NCBI GenBank assembly: GCA_964402815.1
Contig: CAYODP010000001.1
Coordinates: 415 to 64,414, forward strand
Source: an uncultured Candidatus Saccharibacteria bacterium
Lineage (GTDB): Bacteria > Patescibacteriota > Saccharimonadia > Saccharimonadales > Saccharimonadaceae
Direction: 5' to 3'
Length of the DNA stretch: 64,000 nucleotides
The notes below the pieces were generated by a model. It ran no database searches, was not told where the DNA came from, and worked only from the letters and a program-made list of their open reading frames with translations. Below are positions 14,502 through 50,783 of this stretch, piece after piece; position 1 is the stretch's first letter; each line of letters opens with the position of its first letter. Both the position numbers and the translations under genes were made by a program.

Positions 14502-14506
14502 GAAAT

Positions 14507-14703
14507 TGTCTAGTTTCATCATTGAGTATGCCGCGTAGTTGCGCAGTTACATAACTGGTCGGTTACGTGTTCGAGTTTTTGTGATGAGCTTTGATTATGT
14601 GTGTCAGAAACGGCACCGCAAGCAATGCAGATGATCAGGGCTCACGTGACTCGTAGCTTACGTAATTCGTGATTGCGCATCAGCTCATTGATGGGACTAG
14701 ACA
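14507..14703 (+). ncRNA. Rod-shaped structured RNA (6S-like RNA or attenuator leader)
   Basis: The 5' segment TGTCTAGTTTCATCATTGAG pairs with the 3' segment CTCATTGATGGGACTAGACA. Nested stems are TGCGCAGTTAC/GTGATTGCGCA, GTTACGT/ACGTAAT, CGAGTT/GACTCG and TGAGCTTTGATTAT/ATGATCAGGGCTCA, with G:U pairs. It lies between a promoter and a terminator and has no ORF. Confidence 0.65.
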
Positions 14704-14722
14704 CCCTTGCGGTGTCGTTTTT
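14700..14722 (+). terminator. Intrinsic terminator or attenuator
   Basis: GACACC-CTTGC-GGTGTC-GTTTTT. Confidence 0.7.
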
Positions 14723-14782
14723 ATTACTTATGGATTTTACGGCACCTAAAAGGTTTGTGCTATTAACCAAAAGGAGGGCGCC

Positions 14783-17404
14783 ATGCAACGCAAAAAGAGA
14801 CGGTCAACTTTAACAGGACTTCTGCATAGTATTCCAATATATAGTAATAGAAGTCTTAGTCTTATTAACCATAATGGTGATAAGCATAATAAGTTATCTC
14901 ACGTTTCTAATTGTAGTATTCCTCTAGTTTGCATGGCGCTCCTGCTTTTGGGAGGAGTAGTAAGTATTAATCCAGCACTATTTGAGAATCAGAACAGTTA
15001 TGCAGTAGAAGTGGGGCAAGGTACTAACGATAATAGTACAGATAGTGAAGCTGGAATTGCTGCACAATCGATGGCAAGTCCGTCTATCAAGATGGAAGTT
15101 TCGGCAGGAACGGATGGATTTGGTAAAGGTGTGAGCGAACAAGTATCGACGGCGCCGGGAGCTTCGACAGCTTATCGCAGCCATAATATATCAGTGACAG
15201 GACATAATATTACACATTACCAGTTAACGATTTCTGGAGAAAACTTAACGAGTACGGGAGCAGGCGCAACGGAGATTGGCGGTGCGAACGGGGCGACGGG
15301 GGCGACAATGCCAACGAACACCTGGGGCTATGCTTGGGACGACCAAGACAAAGAAGTCTCGGAAATGACTTATAACACAATGACCAGTGAAGGGCAGAGT
15401 TTAGAAAATGTCGATGTACCAGAAGGAAACGGAGCAGACCACGGGTATGATGTGGACTTAAAGAAAAAGCTAGTGTTTGGAGCAAACTTTGGCGCGGATG
15501 CGCAGTCGGGTGTCTATGCGTCTAATGTTACCGTGTCGTTGACTTCAACACCACTAACACTCAGCCAAACTTGGAAGAGGCCCGCCACTATCAATAGTGA
15601 CCAATACACGGAAACACATATTGAAGCCGGGATTGACACGATGCAGGCGATTGATACGGCATGGGCAACACAATATTGTAGTGGAATGGGAACAAACGGT
15701 ACTAGCCCGGCCGGAATCAAGGTAGGAGATGTACTCGACCTGAGAGATGCGCGCGATGGCGAAGTATACCGGATTGTAAAGCTCGAAGACGGTAACTGTT
15801 GGATGCAGCAAAACCTACGGCTACAAGCACCAGAAGGCGGAAGAAACTTGACCAGTGCAGACTCTGATGTGACGAGCGACTGGCTAATGCCAGAAACGCT
15901 GGTGGCGAAGAGTGGGGAGACGACAGTGGCGGGATGGAGCAGTACTGGCGAGGTGCCGAGCTCAGCGTATTACAATAATCCGGATTATGGAGTTAATTAT
16001 AACTGGATGGCCGCGACAGCTGGCGGAGCAATGGCTAACGACGAGGCGACGAATAGTGTTTGCCCTAGGGGGTGGAAGTTGCCAACAGTATTTGAAGAAA
16101 CTGGGTCACTTCAGTACTTGACTAGTCAAATAACTTGGGCTAGCGACATTGGCTGGGCTCGACTCATGGCGCTTCCGTACGATTTTCGCAATTCCCTTTG
16201 GATGAATGCGGACGGCACATCCATCGACGGAGGGACTGACTGGGGAGCTTGGTGGTCACGTACAATATATAATGGGCAGATATATACATTGGCCATCGTT
16301 AATAATAGTTCTGACCTATTTTTTAACGTTACAGAGTTTGCTACGGGCACACCTGTTCGCTGCGTCGCTATATCAGGTTACAACGTAATCTATGATGCGA
16401 ACGGCGGGACGAATGCACCAGCGCCGCAAATCAAGAACTCGACTGCCGATACTGAACAATTTACGATTAGTGGTCAGGGTAGCATGACAAACTCGGGCTA
16501 CACTTTCTTAGGCTGGAGTACCGATAGTAATGCGACAGAGGCCGATAGCAACTATGCTCCGGGTAAGACTGTAACCATACAAAAGGCAAAGCCAGGATTA
16601 ACACTCTACGCAGTATGGGGACAAAACTGGTCGAGCGGAGTTGCCACGGGTATCACGAGGATGCAGCAAGCTAACAGCACTTGGGCGAGTGATTATTGCG
16701 GTAACGCTTCGGGAACTGGTGCCGACGCAGTAAGTGCGAAAGGCATTAAGGTGGGCGATACGCTAGACCTTAAAGATTCGCGTGACGGCCAGACTTACCG
16801 AATTGTGAAACTCGAGGACGGGAATTGTTGGATGCAGGAGAACTTAAGGTTAGTTGCGCCCAAGGGCGGTAAGCTGTTAACGAGTGCAGATTCAGATGTG
16901 TCGAACTGGACGATGCCGGAAACTGTAGCCGTGTCGAAAACGGATGTCTCTAAGTGGGTAGACAGTAACGATAAACCCTACTCTGCTTACGCAAGCGATG
17001 GGGCGAATGAGGTTTATTATAACTGGACGGCTGCAACGGCTACCGATGACTCTAGCAAAGTTACTAGTGGTAGCGTCAGCTCTAGCATATGTCCGAGCGG
17101 ATGGAAGTTACCAACTGGCAATACTGACGGGCAGTTCCAAACACTATTTACTGCTACAGGAATTACGAACAATACGGCTGGAATTAGTGAGTTCAGAAAC
17201 CTGCCCTACAATTTTACTTATACAGGATTAGTAGACTCTAGTATGTATTATAATGGGGCAGAATCTACATGGGGGGCGTGGTGGTCAAATATGGCAAAAG
17301 GTACTAGCGAGGCGTACATAGCAAACGTCTCTTCTAGCAGTTTCGGTTCAGCGTCGATGGGGCGCTATGTGGGAGCTCCAGTGCGCTGCGTCGCTACACA
17401 TTAA
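14783..17404 (+). CDS. Large surface protein: signal/TM, WxL/pilin-like module, FISUMP domain, Listeria-Bacteroides (InlB B/Flg_new) repeat, second FISUMP domain
   Basis: Two copies of DGNCWMQ.NLRL...YNW.AAT...CP.GWKLPT...WW...VRCV; YDANGGT...GYTFLGWST...LTLYAVW repeat between them; AGGAGG RBS. Confidence 0.88.
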   Translation: MQRKKRRSTLTGLLHSIPIYSNRSLSLINHNGDKHNKLSHVSNCSIPLVCMALLLLGGVVSINPALFENQNSYAVEVGQGTNDNSTDSEAGIAAQSMASPSIKMEVSAGTDGFGKGVSEQVSTAPGASTAYRSHNISVTGHNITHYQLTISGENLTSTGAGATEIGGANGATGATMPTNTWGYAWDDQDKEVSEMTYNTMTSEGQSLENVDVPEGNGADHGYDVDLKKKLVFGANFGADAQSGVYASNVTVSLTSTPLTLSQTWKRPATINSDQYTETHIEAGIDTMQAIDTAWATQYCSGMGTNGTSPAGIKVGDVLDLRDARDGEVYRIVKLEDGNCWMQQNLRLQAPEGGRNLTSADSDVTSDWLMPETLVAKSGETTVAGWSSTGEVPSSAYYNNPDYGVNYNWMAATAGGAMANDEATNSVCPRGWKLPTVFEETGSLQYLTSQITWASDIGWARLMALPYDFRNSLWMNADGTSIDGGTDWGAWWSRTIYNGQIYTLAIVNNSSDLFFNVTEFATGTPVRCVAISGYNVIYDANGGTNAPAPQIKNSTADTEQFTISGQGSMTNSGYTFLGWSTDSNATEADSNYAPGKTVTIQKAKPGLTLYAVWGQNWSSGVATGITRMQQANSTWASDYCGNASGTGADAVSAKGIKVGDTLDLKDSRDGQTYRIVKLEDGNCWMQENLRLVAPKGGKLLTSADSDVSNWTMPETVAVSKTDVSKWVDSNDKPYSAYASDGANEVYYNWTAATATDDSSKVTSGSVSSSICPSGWKLPTGNTDGQFQTLFTATGITNNTAGISEFRNLPYNFTYTGLVDSSMYYNGAESTWGAWWSNMAKGTSEAYIANVSSSSFGSASMGRYVGAPVRCVATH

Positions 17405-39026: not shown

Positions 39027-39027
39027 G

Positions 39028-39043
39028 TTTGGTGCGCCCAACT
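39028..39043. repeat. Left attachment site (duplicated tRNA-Leu 3' end)
   Basis: TTTGGTGCGCCCAACT is 14/16 identical to TTTGGTGTGCCCGACT at 50693-50708. Confidence 0.75.
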
Positions 39044-39111
39044 TCGTCAGGTTATTACCACGTTTAAGGAGGGCTAGTTGTATTATTGGAACTTTATGAT
39101 ATAATGTTGAT

Positions 39112-45079: not shown

Positions 45080-45970
45080 CTAATTTGCGTTGTAGCCGTA
45101 ATCTCCACGAGTTAGCAAGATATTCTTCCACCAAGACTCTCTCGCAATAATTGCCTCGTCATCGGTCGTAGATTTATAAATGTCGAGGATTGAATAACGG
45201 AAGTTATTCTTCACATATTCTAAGCCGTTTTCTTCAACTAAGGCTTTCAGCTCCTTGTTGTGGCCATGACCATTTTCAGCATAATTTCGCCACCTGCCGA
45301 GCAACATAGTATCACCATAAGCCGAACCGACATAACGTTTATTAGTAGCAGTATCGGTTATGAGATAGACTGCTTTTTGGTTTTCTAGTGCTGTCTGCCA
45401 ATTCTTGAACTTCAGAACTCTACGCAGATCGTTCCACGACAAATCAACATTCTCATAGCCCGGAAAATCTTCACCAAGTTCATTGTAGGGGTGTTCGAGA
45501 ATGGTTTTAACATATATGGAGTCAATAATATCTTCACTACGCACTACCACATTTCTGCCTTTGTCTTCAAAATGTACCACTAGCCGACCAAAGAATGGAG
45601 CATACTCAGCAAGGTTCTCCTCATCAGCGTCAATCAAAAACTTACTATCGTCCAGTACCTTATAGGCATTTACAAGCAACCAGTCTTTATCGGAAGAATA
45701 TGGAATAAAACAAAATACAATATCACCATTCTTAAACCGTTTATAGCCGTCTGGGTTATGTGTCTTGACCGACTCTTCCACAACGGCAACCTCGCCAGAA
45801 CGATACATAGCAAGCAAATCAAAATATCTCGGCTGATCGCCAAGTTTTTCTACAACCTCAGGAGCCTGTTTTTCTGCGTCATACTGCCAATTGCTGTTGA
45901 AGACGAGTTTAAGTTTACCCATATCTTCGTCTGATAGGTGGAGTAAACTGGTGAATTTAATAGTGCTCAT
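45080..45970 (-). CDS. GIY-YIG nuclease family protein
   Basis: AVYLITD...KRYVGSAYG...LGRW.NY...GHG.N.EL...FRYSIL...ARESWWK.IL..R..GYNAN. Confidence 0.85.
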   Translation of the reverse strand: MSTIKFTSLLHLSDEDMGKLKLVFNSNWQYDAEKQAPEVVEKLGDQPRYFDLLAMYRSGEVAVVEESVKTHNPDGYKRFKNGDIVFCFIPYSSDKDWLLVNAYKVLDDSKFLIDADEENLAEYAPFFGRLVVHFEDKGRNVVVRSEDIIDSIYVKTILEHPYNELGEDFPGYENVDLSWNDLRRVLKFKNWQTALENQKAVYLITDTATNKRYVGSAYGDTMLLGRWRNYAENGHGHNKELKALVEENGLEYVKNNFRYSILDIYKSTTDDEAIIARESWWKNILLTRGDYGYNAN

Positions 45971-46002
45971 TTTTTGCTTGCCCTTTCCGGTCGCCTGATA
46001 AC

Positions 46003-46141
46003 AAAAAATGCGACCATGTACTTAGTCGCTTTAACCTTAACAAAACCAGTTCTAGGAACGATTTTGCGTACATAGCCGCATTTCTTCCTAGAACCTACGG
46101 CAAAACTACCGTTGGTTGTTCGGTTTTATTAAGATTAAAGC
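46003..46141 (-). ncRNA. Structured RNA or terminated leader upstream of the GIY-YIG gene
   Basis: Minus-strand 20-bp stem 46141-46122 / 46047-46028 (with G:U) enclosing hairpins ACGG/CCGT and GTTCTAGGAA/TTCCTAGAAC; terminator GCGAC-10-GTCGC-ATTTTTT; extended -10 TGGTATAAT at 46148-46156. Confidence 0.6.
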
Positions 46142-46607
46142 AATTCTATTATACCACATTACGCCACAAAAGAGAAGATGGTTTACTTGCTCTGAAATAG
46201 GTTGAAGCTGACTTCTAGATGATAAGAACAAACGCTAAATCGCAAAAACGCAAATTTCTTTGCCAAATTATTCAAAATATTACATTGGGTATATACAATG
46301 TACAAAAGTACGGCATTATATCATACATCACGAAAAAAGAAAAATTGACAGCAAGCACCTAACGTGGCATTCTTTACTTTAAATATATAGTGCCTTACAA
46401 TAGAGGTAAGCTAAAGGTAAAACCGCATCTGCCTAAGTGAAATGTCGAGGAGATGGCTGAGAAAATCACCTTTAGATAATTGGGAGTTTAACCAGCGCGA
46501 GGCTGCGTGAAATAAAAAGCGCTCAGTAAAAACAATACTAAAGTTGTATTAGAACAGCTCATTGTTTTTGATGCATAAAAGCATGATGATAAGGAGGTAT
46601 ATTTTTC

Positions 46608-46910
46608 ATGCCCAAAAAACAGGACGAACCGCAAAAAATCAGAACATACAAAGAATTATCGCAAAAGGAGCAACCTTTTGCGGGCTTCAAAACTGGCGAG
46701 CAATTGCCACTCTTTGAGATGCCACCAGCTTTGGCAAGCCCAGCTATCAGCCAAGGCTTGCCAAAGCTGCAGCAGCTACTCTCTGAGCAAGGTATTGAAA
46801 TTGGCAGTTTTGATGAACTTTACACCGCTGCAATCAGTATTATTCGTTTCGTAGCGGCTAAGGAGAAGCAGGCAATTTTAAAGAATATCGAGGAGAAAAG
46901 GCATGAATAA
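46608..46910 (+). CDS. Small hypothetical protein preceding the helicase
   Basis: AAGGAGG RBS; overlaps the start of the next gene. Confidence 0.75.
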   Translation: MPKKQDEPQKIRTYKELSQKEQPFAGFKTGEQLPLFEMPPALASPAISQGLPKLQQLLSEQGIEIGSFDELYTAAISIIRFVAAKEKQAILKNIEEKRHE

Positions 46911-48957: not shown

Positions 48958-50721
48958 ATGTCAAGAAAGCAAGTGAAATACAAAAAGCAGGCTACGAGTA
49001 GCGACGAATTGCGCTTTGTCGCTTATATGCGTAAGTCAACTGAAGACAAGAATCACCAAATGAACTCAATCGTCGACCAACAAACATGGATTACGCGAGA
49101 GGCAAGAAAACTAGGGCTAAAGATAGTGGCAGTTTTTCAAGAAGAGAAATCTGCCTCTAAGCCTAAGAATCGCCCAGAATTCGATAAAATGATGAAAATG
49201 CTAGAGGCAGGCAGGGCAAATGCTATTATTTGTTACCACGTAGACCGCTTATCGCGAAACCCAATCGACAATGGACGATTACAATGGGATGTAGCTAATG
49301 GCACTATTCAAAAAATTCATGCTTCGGACGGAGATTATACGAATGGTGATAATAGCAACTTCATGTTTGCGTTGCAAAACTGCCTAGCGACAGACTATTC
49401 TCAAAAGCTAAAGAGCCGCGTGCACTATACTATGATGGAGAACAATAGGCGGGGTCGTTGTAATGGACGTGCTGCGCAGGGATATCTTAATAGGCACGAC
49501 CCAAATAACCTGAAAAGAGCCATCGTCATAAAGGATACGAGTATTGTGGGCAAAAACGGAGAGAGTCGTTACGACCTAATTCGTAAAGCCCTCAAGATGT
49601 TTGGCACTGGAAATTATAGTCCTGTAGAAATTAAACAAATGCTTGATGATTGGGGTTATACTCAGCGACGTACTCACAAAGGTTTAACTCTTGGTGGACT
49701 ACATTATATTCTAGAAAATCCATTTTACGCAGGCTACACCGAAGACCCAGAAGACCCCGATGTCTGGCATAAGGCGGAGTGGGAGCCCATGATTAGTGAG
49801 CAGGAATACTGGCGTAACCAGAAGATTAAGCAAAGCTATGGCCGAAAAACAGGAAAACATTGCCCCCGCCCTAGAATTTCGGCTCGTGCCTATAAGTTTC
49901 AACTCAAAGGTGTAATCACGTGCTCTAGTTGCGGTTGTGGCATTGGTGCTGGTTATCACCCAAAAATTATGGCGGATGGTTCTACGAAAATCTATGTCCA
50001 CTATGCCTGCAATAATAATGGCCATAATTCTCTCAGAAAATGTCAACTACATGGCGGTATTAGCGAGCCAGCACTATTTGCTCAAGTAGACGCATTACTT
50101 AACAAATATCGAATCAGCCGAACGCTCTATGAATGGGCATTAGAAATTCTTGGCAAATTAAAGGATGAAGAAATTTACGAAAGGCACAGTATTGAAATGA
50201 GCCAGAATGCCAGCGTTGAACGTTTAAAAGCAAAGCGCGATAGGCTACTTGATATGTAGCTAGAACATGAAGAAGACGGAATTGAAATGACCGCTGAAGA
50301 ATACAATACGCGCCGACAAAAACTGGATTCCGCCATCACCGAATTAGAACAATCCAGACGCGACGTTGTCGATAGGAACCAAAATTGGTATGAAATTATT
50401 GGTAAGACTTTAGAAACGTTAAATGATCCACGCGAAAAATTTACCGATGGCAGTTGTTCCGGAGAAAGACGTAGTATTCTACAATCAATCGGTCCACGTG
50501 CCTACCTCGTGGAATGCTTCGACCGTTACAGTAAGAAAGGTAAGGTTTTAACCAAACGAGTTCTAGAGGTGGAGCCTTATCCGTGGCTCGAAAAATTGCG
50601 AAAATCAGCACAAAAAATGGAACACGATTTCGGGAAGGTTTTTACCGCAAACCAACAGGGGCAAAATGACCAAAAATCGGCTCCTTATAAACTTTGGTGT
50701 GCCCGACTAGACTTGAACTAG
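48958..50721 (+). pseudogene. Large serine recombinase (integrase) interrupted by an in-frame TAG at 50257-50259
   Basis: Catalytic YMRKST (Ser), SASK...RPEF..M, DRLSRN, recombinase domain (NPFYAG), zinc ribbon CSSCG...YACN...C. The same frame continues after TAG (LEHEEDGIEMTAEEY...) to 50721. Confidence 0.85.
50693..50708. repeat. Right attachment site within the tRNA-Leu 3' end
   Basis: TTTGGTGTGCCCGACT, matching 39028-39043. Confidence 0.75.
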
Positions 50722-50783
50722 CACAGCTTAAAATCGCCACTACCACCTCAAGGTAGCGTGTCTACCAATTCCACCACGGGCAC
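50695..50783 (-). tRNA. tRNA-Leu (anticodon GAG)
   Basis: Acceptor GTGCCCG/CGGGCAC-A-CCA; D loop GGAATTGGTAGAC; anticodon stem CTACC-TTGAGGT-GGTAG; long variable arm; T arm GTTCAAGTC. Confidence 0.95.

Follow-up and report, generated by a model that had tools for sequence, protein, structure and literature searches.

A covarying, pseudoknotted leader RNA upstream of an Uzume-family GIY-YIG nuclease gene belongs to a generic leader family of Candidatus Saccharibacteria

Results

A nuclease gene headed by a structured, terminated leader

We analysed a stretch of 64,000 nucleotides (nt) of DNA from an uncultured Candidatus Saccharibacteria bacterium (assembly GCA_964402815.1, contig CAYODP010000001.1, positions 415 to 64,414), called the window below, and in particular a gene for a GIY-YIG nuclease, uzuA, together with the structured leader RNA that precedes it. 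All coordinates of the leader, of uzuA and of the open reading frames (ORFs) downstream are given on the minus strand of the window. The gene (45970-45080) encodes a protein of 296 amino acids (aa), UzuA, and the leader element spans 144 nt (46146-46003). An earlier note, made from the letters alone, had seen here an extended -10 box, a 20-bp stem enclosing two hairpins, an intrinsic terminator about 30 nt before the ATG and a complementarity between the inner hairpin loop and the terminator, and had taken the RNA for a partner of the nuclease that regulates or neutralises it, possibly as a new defence pair. All of these features are confirmed by our analysis, the complementarity proving larger than noted. 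The dedicated pair did not hold up: the leader RNA is not specific to UzuA, and belongs to a generic leader family of Saccharibacteria.

The extended -10 promoter TGGTATAAT is read from the sequence at 46156-46148, and the predicted transcription start, at about 46146-46141, would have the first stem, P1, begin with the RNA or no more than a few bases into it. P1 comprises 20 bp (46141-46122 with 46047-46028), of which the repeat finder counts 90% as Watson-Crick pairs, the remainder being G-U; both its arms, GCUUUAAUCUUAAUAAAACC on the 5' side and GGUUUUGUUAAGGUUAAAGC on the 3' side, are supported by the repeat finder and by covariation, and the 5' arm by the fold as well. P1 encloses a hairpin called P2 (AACGGUA-GUUU-UGCCGUA, 46113-46096), which comes from the fold, and P3, a perfect 10-bp stem (46094-46085 with 46058-46049; 100% complementary for the repeat finder) whose arms, GUUCUAGGAA and UUCCUAGAAC, again rest on repeat finder and covariation. 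In the apical loop of P3 the fold places a small hairpin, P4, made of UGCG (46080-46077) and CGCA (46068-46065).

A terminator scan calls an intrinsic terminator composed of GCGACU-loop-GGUCGC at 46029-46010 plus ATTTTTTGTT; the segment between GCGACU and GGUCGC, within 46029-46003, is AAGUACAU, and the U tract proper, AUUUUUU, occupies 46009-46003. Between the end of this tract and the uzuA ATG (45970) there are 32 nt, so that no space is left for a separate uzuA promoter. A scan of 45900-46700 reported no other promoter near uzuA, the spacer between uzuA and the next ORF being read by eye only. A Shine-Dalgarno-like sequence, GGAAAGGG, is read at 45988-45981 and is conserved in the UzuA leaders.

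The complementarity between inner loop and terminator amounts to a pseudoknot helix, K, with a core of 12 bp and about 18 bp in all. Its 5' strand core, e1 (GCGGCUAUGUAC, 46079-46068), lies in the apical loop of P3 and pairs with e3 (GUACAUGGUCGC, 46021-46010); the A-rich run GAAGAAAU (46087-46080), which precedes e1, faces the U tract in the extension. The repeat finder reports this match as 19 nt at 84%, with the A-rich run opposite the U tract included. Each strand of K has other possible partners. P4 is the local alternative for e1, and the last 6 nt of e3 double as the 3' arm of the local terminator hairpin, T, whose 5' arm, e2 (GCGACU, 46029-46024), has its first two bases in common with the P1 base. 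Further downstream, e4 (GCGACC, 45994-45989), located directly 5' of the Shine-Dalgarno sequence, is the complement of GGUCGC in e3, and their pairing is called helix S.

The leader folds at -64.1 kcal/mol, as compared with -37.8 +/- 3.6 kcal/mol for dinucleotide shuffles (z = -7.4; none of 200 shuffles as good). Taken as separate duplexes, K is the strongest of the competing helices at -25.4 kcal/mol (-17.7 for its core), followed by T (-9.9), S (-9.7) and P4 (-5.2). We also considered that the AUG in e1 might begin a leader peptide, and rejected this candidate: the AUG is not kept (UUG, AAG or CUU are found elsewhere), and the same stretch covaries as RNA.

Conservation and covariation of the helices

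A profile search for relatives of UzuA gave 160 loci, designated below by L and a number, and the nearest to the window are metagenome-assembled genomes of Candidatus Saccharibacteria. Upstream of UzuA, blastn finds the leader at 77-99% identity in 17 of 25 Saccharibacteria loci and in three metagenome loci, and the similarity persists where the UzuA proteins share only 61-66% identity. Divergent leaders are present in L013, L083 and L024, in which UzuA is 65%, 62% and 42% identical, respectively, to that of the window. Two covariance models were built, R1 from 16 leaders and R2 from 46 matches, and the E-values of these home-made models are to be read as rough. Covariation was then measured on an alignment of 57 sequences; the UzuA leaders are closely akin, and much of the independent covariation stems from members that head other genes.

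In this alignment, the basal 11 pairs of P1 are formed in 99.2% of cells and 10 of the 11 are altered on both sides in some sequence; the corresponding figures are 88.6% and 8 of 8 pairs for the distal part of P1, 96.1% and 10 of 10 for P3, and 99.7% and 7 of 12 for the core of K, whose twelfth pair, listed separately as a helix, is formed in 100%. Over P1, P3 and K, 38 of the 47 pairs are altered on both sides. None of 500 column shuffles reaches any of the observed covariation measures, and when the partner column is slid by one to three positions as a control, pairing falls to 35-44%. The structure is therefore not due to chance, compensatory changes being abundant across the 57 sequences. 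G-U pairs occupy 216 cells of P1, P3 and K versus 13 for A-C, which means that the structure forms only on the strand of the gene, hence as RNA.

K is the best-supported helix of the leader. It had been left out of both R1 and R2, and its support can therefore not arise from fitting. Its variants include UAUGUAC/GUACAUG, CAAGAAC/GUUCUUG, CAUUUAC/GUAAAUG, CACAUAC/GUAUGUG and GUGGCU../..AGCCAC. The extension formed by the A-rich run and the U tract is paired in 70-80% of cases, with an exchange of A-U for U-A in five sequences, and the U tract is retained in nearly all members of the family. P2, on the other hand, is an optional part of the family, being variable in length or missing (L013, L083, L162, L166 and others).

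Competing pairings of the terminator strand

The GGUCGC of e3 can pair with three partners, e1 (K), e2 (hairpin T) and e4 (helix S). Where e3 changes, in L013, L083, L168, L172, L024 and L162, K stays paired and the e2-e3 pairing of T is lost; e2 is nearly invariant in the family, and T is without covariation. In L024 the U run is reached by the extended K only, not by T. P4 is paired in 96% of cases with its CGCA conserved in sequence, and only two cells are altered on both sides, one of them in L083.

Helix S is present both in the minimum free energy structure and in the RNAalifold structure, and it covaries: GGCCAC/GUGGUC in L013, GGCCA/UGGUC in L083, UUGGUC/GACCAA in L024. More generally, the downstream complement of e3 exceeds what shuffles give, with a mean z of -2.2 and 65% of the 54 unique members at 10 of 200 or fewer. 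In many members, chiefly those placed before methyltransferase genes, e4 can pair with a further segment, e5, in a hairpin that encloses the Shine-Dalgarno sequence just before the AUG, and here also the arms covary (GCGACC/GGUCGC, GCGAUU/AAUCGC, GCGAUC/GAUCGC, CGACCC/GGGUCG). As far as can be read from the aligned sequences, then, the family carries a chain of mutually exclusive predicted pairings, e1:e3 or e2:e3, then e3:e4, then e4:e5.

A leader family with many cargo genes

Genome searches were made with strict filters on evenly drawn samples, and the frequencies that they yield are lower bounds. Among species-representative genomes of the class, 26 of 401, from 12 of 186 genera, carry a match to the leader family, and only one of them lies outside the family of the window's genome. 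Within that family, R2 found it in 44 of 401 genomes (28 of 95 genera), at one to four copies per genome. A TGnTA(T/C)AAT box stands at constant distance before nearly all of the 57 members, and upstream of this -10 box there is no conservation between different leader-headed cassettes. The window's own genome has a second copy on another contig (G000:C4:19485-19602, minus strand; L162 1501-1618), detected by R1 with 62 bits (E = 1e-9). This copy is devoid of P2, has its own compensated K (AUUUAC/GUAAAU, vs AUGUAC in the uzuA leader) and precedes the gene of a 334-aa acidic protein in which no Pfam domain was found.

Altogether the family heads at least 15 unrelated gene types. They comprise DNA methyltransferases (C5, EcoRI-type, several N6/N4, D12 of the Dam-like kind, type III Mod-like), restriction enzymes (MmeI-type, and in L202 a PvuRts1I-like+SRA type IV enzyme), other enzymes (a class I methyltransferase, a radical S-adenosylmethionine (SAM) enzyme, an AdoMet decarboxylase, a GTP cyclohydrolase II), and further proteins (a SHOCT protein, a type IV secretion system pilin, a FISUMP adhesin and many secreted or membrane proteins without recognised domain). 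About 40% of the cargo genes other than UzuA use SAM, namely those of the DNA methyltransferases, the class I methyltransferase, the radical SAM enzyme and the AdoMet decarboxylase.

For 99 other UzuA loci, conversely, R2 detected no leader in the upstream region on the strand of the gene, the sole match being weak and on the opposite strand (L055, E 0.045). These leader-less loci include Saccharibacteria (L003, L017, L019-L022; six examined directly) and all the tested loci from other phyla. The structure that the earlier note wanted to see upstream of homologues is thus there, as a covarying RNA, in 17 of 25 Saccharibacteria loci, and missing from these 99. Moreover, leaders that hardly differ are found before UzuA proteins with 88% (L007) and 63% (L082) identity to that of the window, so that leader and ORF appear to be exchanged as modules.

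Two side observations concern leader-like sequences. In L017, a leader-less Saccharibacteria locus adjacent to a tRNA gene, about five tandem units resembling GGCGACCAGAAAGG stand before the ATG (L017:2400-2500); in the leader, the counterpart of this unit is e4 together with the Shine-Dalgarno sequence. In the window itself, on the plus strand at 14504-14723, a longer, rod-shaped leader of the same design precedes an adhesin gene (14783-17404); its tip (CGGCACCGCAAG) forms a helix with CUUGCGGUGUCG, and U5 comes after the latter. We tried this rod as a member of the family and rejected it: with filters off, R2 gives 13 bits and an E-value of 0.8, and homology is not shown.

UzuA

UzuA consists of an N-terminal domain (residues 1-190) and a C-terminal GIY-YIG domain (199-295). 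It matches the PADLOC profiles PDLC03973 (E = 9.9e-47, profile positions 53-278 of 278) and PDLC03974 (E = 7.8e-46), the match covering residues 77-296 and leaving 1-76 outside the profile. The GIY-YIG domain is recognised by Pfam PF01541 above cut-off, and the nearest solved structure is the catalytic domain of I-TevI, by sequence profile as well as by fold (probability 1.0). Y202, Y213, G215, R226, E278 and N294 are invariant in 20 UzuA homologues, and the conservation of Y202, Y213, R226, E278 and N294 is consistent with an active nuclease. No match to an endoribonuclease of the ToxN/AbiQ/CptN type was obtained, the ORF matching only UzuA, GIY-YIG and homing-endonuclease models. The earlier note was therefore right about the type of nuclease, which can now be named as UzuA of the Uzume system (PADLOC E = 1e-46), and we consider this protein as an ordinary member of the Uzume family, predicted to be an active GIY-YIG DNase.

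The AlphaFold2 model of UzuA has a mean predicted local distance difference test score (pLDDT) of 90, and that of the N-terminal domain (45970-45401) 86. A Foldseek search of the Protein Data Bank with the N-terminal domain returned weak matches only (E > 0.1, probability <= 0.08, template modelling score <= 0.28), and these are mostly PUA-like YTH and EVE/THYN1 readers of modified bases. If this weak PUA-like resemblance of the model is real, UzuA may be a modification-dependent nuclease. As a separate observation, the uzuA of L011 has an in-frame stop within its first 190 codons (L011:2501-3070), which could reflect a pseudogene or an assembly error.

Uzume is listed as a single-gene defence system with GIY-YIG homology (bioRxiv 10.1101/2024.10.26.620412). 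The present locus resembles it by the UzuA profile match and the GIY-YIG domain, and differs from it by the 5' leader RNA and by three linked conserved ORFs.

The cassette and its surroundings

These three ORFs follow uzuA on the same strand and encode 259 aa (45033-44254), 146 aa (44236-43796) and 79 aa (43857-43618). No Pfam domain was found in any of them; ORF259 has an N-terminal membrane segment and a low-complexity linker. Aligned by blastn with L001, L006, L007, L009 and L010, the window is homologous from 46177-46191, that is, from 20-35 nt upstream of the -10 box, down to about 43620. The unit is therefore a 2.6-kb cassette headed by the promoter and the leader.

The cassette sits in a lower-GC stretch, probably an integrated element, with a large serine recombinase adjoining a tRNA-Leu gene. 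The recombinase gene (48958-50259) is followed by an ORF of 144 aa (50287-50721), whose end is overlapped by tRNA-Leu(GAG) (50695-50783). Searched for as att sites of the surrounding element, exact direct repeats of at least 12 nt were not found, the only similarity being an imperfect one of 17-20 nt. An imperfect repeat, TTTGGTG[C/T]GCCC[A/G]ACT, occurs at about 39027 (39027-39045) and about 50692, and its two copies may be att sites delimiting an integrated element of 11.7 kb, in which the UzuA cassette and a HEPN-like gene would both lie.

Two other sequences were noticed upstream of leader promoters. At 46230-46254, in the divergent intergenic region upstream of the uzuA leader promoter, an 8-nt tandem repeat, AAACGCAA, is present three times, and words like TTGCGTTT also precede the leaders of L012 and L084; the repeat may be an operator or an iteron of the surrounding element. 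The UzuA cassettes of L001-L016 have in common, some 40-90 nt upstream of the -10 box, a block in which the word CCYCTGT occurs twice (for example ACCCCTGTAAAAGTCAAC...GACCTCTGTT). This block is degenerate in the window (46190-46215) and missing from other leader-headed cassettes; it could serve to bind a protein or mark the junction of a cassette.

Discussion

A new family of leader RNA

With a conserved, structured domain that covaries in 57 sequences, the uzuA leader and its relatives constitute a new family of leader RNA, which neither Rfam 15 nor the literature searched contains. A cmscan search of Rfam at E <= 10, with 6 kb of sequence and with a 211-nt leader alone under relaxed filters, gave only spurious matches to long-hairpin microRNA and small nucleolar RNA families, far below gathering scores. 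In the literature searched, the only published leader family of Saccharibacteria or of the candidate phyla radiation is the lysM-TM7 motif, a TM7-specific candidate cis-regulatory RNA of 5' untranslated regions that is tied to lysM genes (Weinberg et al. 2017, PMC5737381). It is like our family as a lineage-restricted Saccharibacteria candidate of the 5' untranslated region, and unlike it in its association with lysM; moreover, no Rfam match to the leader was obtained.

Some known riboswitches offer a structural parallel. The H-type pseudoknot class, which pairs a hairpin loop with a 3' tail and so hides the ribosome-binding site (SAM-II, SAM-V, preQ1-II), resembles our leader in the loop-to-tail pairing, and in having an alternative pairing beside the Shine-Dalgarno sequence, which here would be S or e4:e5. 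In our family, however, the tail strand is not the Shine-Dalgarno sequence and precedes the U tract, the ribosome site is one step further along the pairing chain, and no conserved binding pocket is visible. In ZTP, fluoride and preQ1-I leaders the terminator takes part in a pseudoknot, and these platforms have in common with ours a promoter-proximal 5' position and long-range pairing to the 3' arm of the terminator, an arm for which mutually exclusive pairings are predicted in our leader. The HMP-PP 'thiS' riboswitch, reported as a terminator-embedded aptamer (PMC6478431), would belong to the same type. Unlike the helices of these leaders, K is far longer (12-18 bp) and covaries freely; the junction is unconserved, and the mixed regulon implies no ligand.

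Which role for the RNA?

The question arises as to what such an RNA does in front of a nuclease gene. The antitoxin-like function envisaged by the earlier note, in which the terminated RNA binds or neutralises the GIY-YIG nuclease and both form a new defence pair akin to AbiF or to type III toxin-antitoxin systems, has three points to recommend it: the order of promoter, structured non-coding RNA, terminator and gene is that of ToxIN, CptIN, TenpIN and the abiF motif, a terminated RNA of this sort would be compact and probably stable, and the RNA is kept upstream of UzuA in most of the Saccharibacteria loci (17 of 25) as well as in four metagenome loci. Beyond the layout, though, three of the four features that define a type III system are lacking. 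Tandem Repeats Finder and a direct-repeat search detected no tandem repeat in 46003-46146, the only array, at 46230-46254, being upstream of the promoter; the protein is of the GIY-YIG DNase type and not a ToxN/AbiQ-type RNase; and the RNA is not paired with this protein alone, since the same family heads methyltransferase, adhesin, pilin and metabolic genes, with a second copy in the very same genome. Nor is any Rfam family matched, the abiF motif included. Given also that 99 UzuA loci do without the RNA, that Uzume has been described as a single-gene system (bioRxiv 10.1101/2024.10.26.620412) and that leaders and UzuA ORFs recombine independently, an antitoxin appears very improbable, and we infer that UzuA does not need the leader RNA. 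A trans-acting role is hardly more attractive. A terminated RNA of about 140 nt, with its consensus-like promoter, its terminator and its fully helical fold, could well be abundant and stable, and might be the functional product itself, the gene being expressed by incidental read-through. The variable parts of K differ, however, between the two copies of the genome (AUGUAC vs AUUUAC), each matching its own 3' strand, which points to a logic in cis; there is no conserved single-stranded seed region, and all copies are tightly coupled to an ORF that lacks a promoter of its own. We thus regard a small RNA acting in trans as quite improbable. Lastly, the inverted repeats could act as DNA, in the manner of an attC-like recombination site or cassette boundary, as the element heads mobile cassettes, homology to relatives begins just upstream of it, and leaders and ORFs are shuffled. 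This is barely credible in view of the ratio of G-U to A-C cells (216 vs 13), by which pairing is maintained on one strand only, of the fixed spacing to the -10 box and to the U tract, and of the homology breakpoint, which is upstream of the promoter and hence outside the element.

Two further scenarios keep the leader in cis. It could be a riboswitch in the strict sense, or be recognised by an RNA-binding protein dedicated to it, with K stabilised or melted by a small molecule (a SAM-related one being the candidate) or by a factor, and a scattered regulon switched in this way. Loop-to-3'-tail pseudoknots combined with terminator and Shine-Dalgarno platforms are indeed found in several riboswitch classes, nucleotides without a role in K are strongly conserved (CGCA, GCGACU, the P1 base), and the share of SAM users among the cargo, about 40% outside UzuA, is suggestive. 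Yet P2 is optional, the junction varies, and conservation of unpaired positions is sparse; the cargo also comprises nucleases, pilins, adhesins and small membrane proteins that have nothing to do with SAM, it is not a coherent set of genes that would indicate a ligand, and methyltransferases may just be the commonest accessory genes of the lineage. We therefore rate this scenario as unlikely. The leader could also be a passive module that does not switch at all, its 5' structure protecting from 5'-end-dependent decay, its leaky terminator fixing a low level of expression, and its alternative pairings being by-products of the GCGAC/GUCGC words. Both ends of the RNA would in fact be buried, since P1 starts where the 5' end is predicted and the extension of K takes up the U tract, and such a one-size-fits-all expression unit would suit a diverse cargo from which no signal can be deduced. 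A plain hairpin and a terminator would suffice for that job, however, and selection keeps a covarying 12-bp pseudoknot, S, and hairpins that enclose the Shine-Dalgarno sequence; we do not expect a purely passive role.

A cis-acting attenuator of a generic kind

We consider it probable that the leader is a cis-acting attenuator or gate belonging to the generic family described here, the odds being roughly even, within this reading, between a regulated switch and a fixed throttle. Because the RNA sits between the only visible promoter and the ORF, it very probably controls nuclease expression in cis. From the two roles suggested in the earlier note, an RNA-regulated nuclease is thereby retained, and an RNA-neutralised one is left unsupported.

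The mechanism that we propose is as follows. By default, e3 would be taken by e1 (K) or by e2 (T) and most transcripts would stop at the U tract, leaving a compact RNA of about 140 nt with protected ends. In those transcripts that read through in the K state, e4 would be free to close the ribosome-binding region, which would then be closed or less favourable; in the UzuA leaders, e4 would just be unpaired beside this region. If K were prevented or opened, e3 would pair with e4, the site would open, and the downstream gene would be transcribed and translated. The leader would in this way be a default-off throttle on genes whose over-expression is dangerous or costly, such as those of nucleases, restriction-modification enzymes and envelope proteins, and would act on whichever cassette follows, in the present case uzuA and the three ORFs downstream.

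Several points weigh against the attenuator so conceived. Where transcription starts, that it stops at the U tract and how much of it reads through are predictions. T and P4 are conserved in sequence and nearly without covariation, so that the two-state picture leans mainly on K and S; S itself is missing in about one third of the family members, and e5 is missing from the UzuA leaders, so that an effect of S on translation is not evident there. In addition, the U tract adjoins K as well as T, and K may itself be the terminator stem and not the competitor of T. T may in that case be a kinetic intermediate or a back-up, and no antiterminated fold would then have been found. Finally, the heterogeneous cargo set indicates no single signal, and the three-way junction is variable with few unpaired nucleotides conserved, unlike most metabolite riboswitches.

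A more ambitious version, on which we are rather doubtful, would make the leader a riboswitch-like or protein-bound sensor, with the K/S toggle co-ordinating defence, restriction-modification and surface cassettes that are dispersed and horizontally exchanged. The signal might be a SAM-related metabolite, contact with the host, or phage infection.

Conclusions

Saccharibacteria are ultra-small epibionts with few known regulators, in which the control of accessory genes is almost uncharted. The leader family offers experimenters a definite system in which to study gene control in the candidate phyla radiation, as well as a marker for accessory and defence cassettes in Saccharibacteria genomes. 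For Uzume it calls for caution, the RNA being part of the expression machinery of this lineage and not of the defence mechanism. Were the sensor version true, the leader would constitute a lineage-wide regulatory socket into which accessory genes are plugged, in bacteria that have very few transcription factors.

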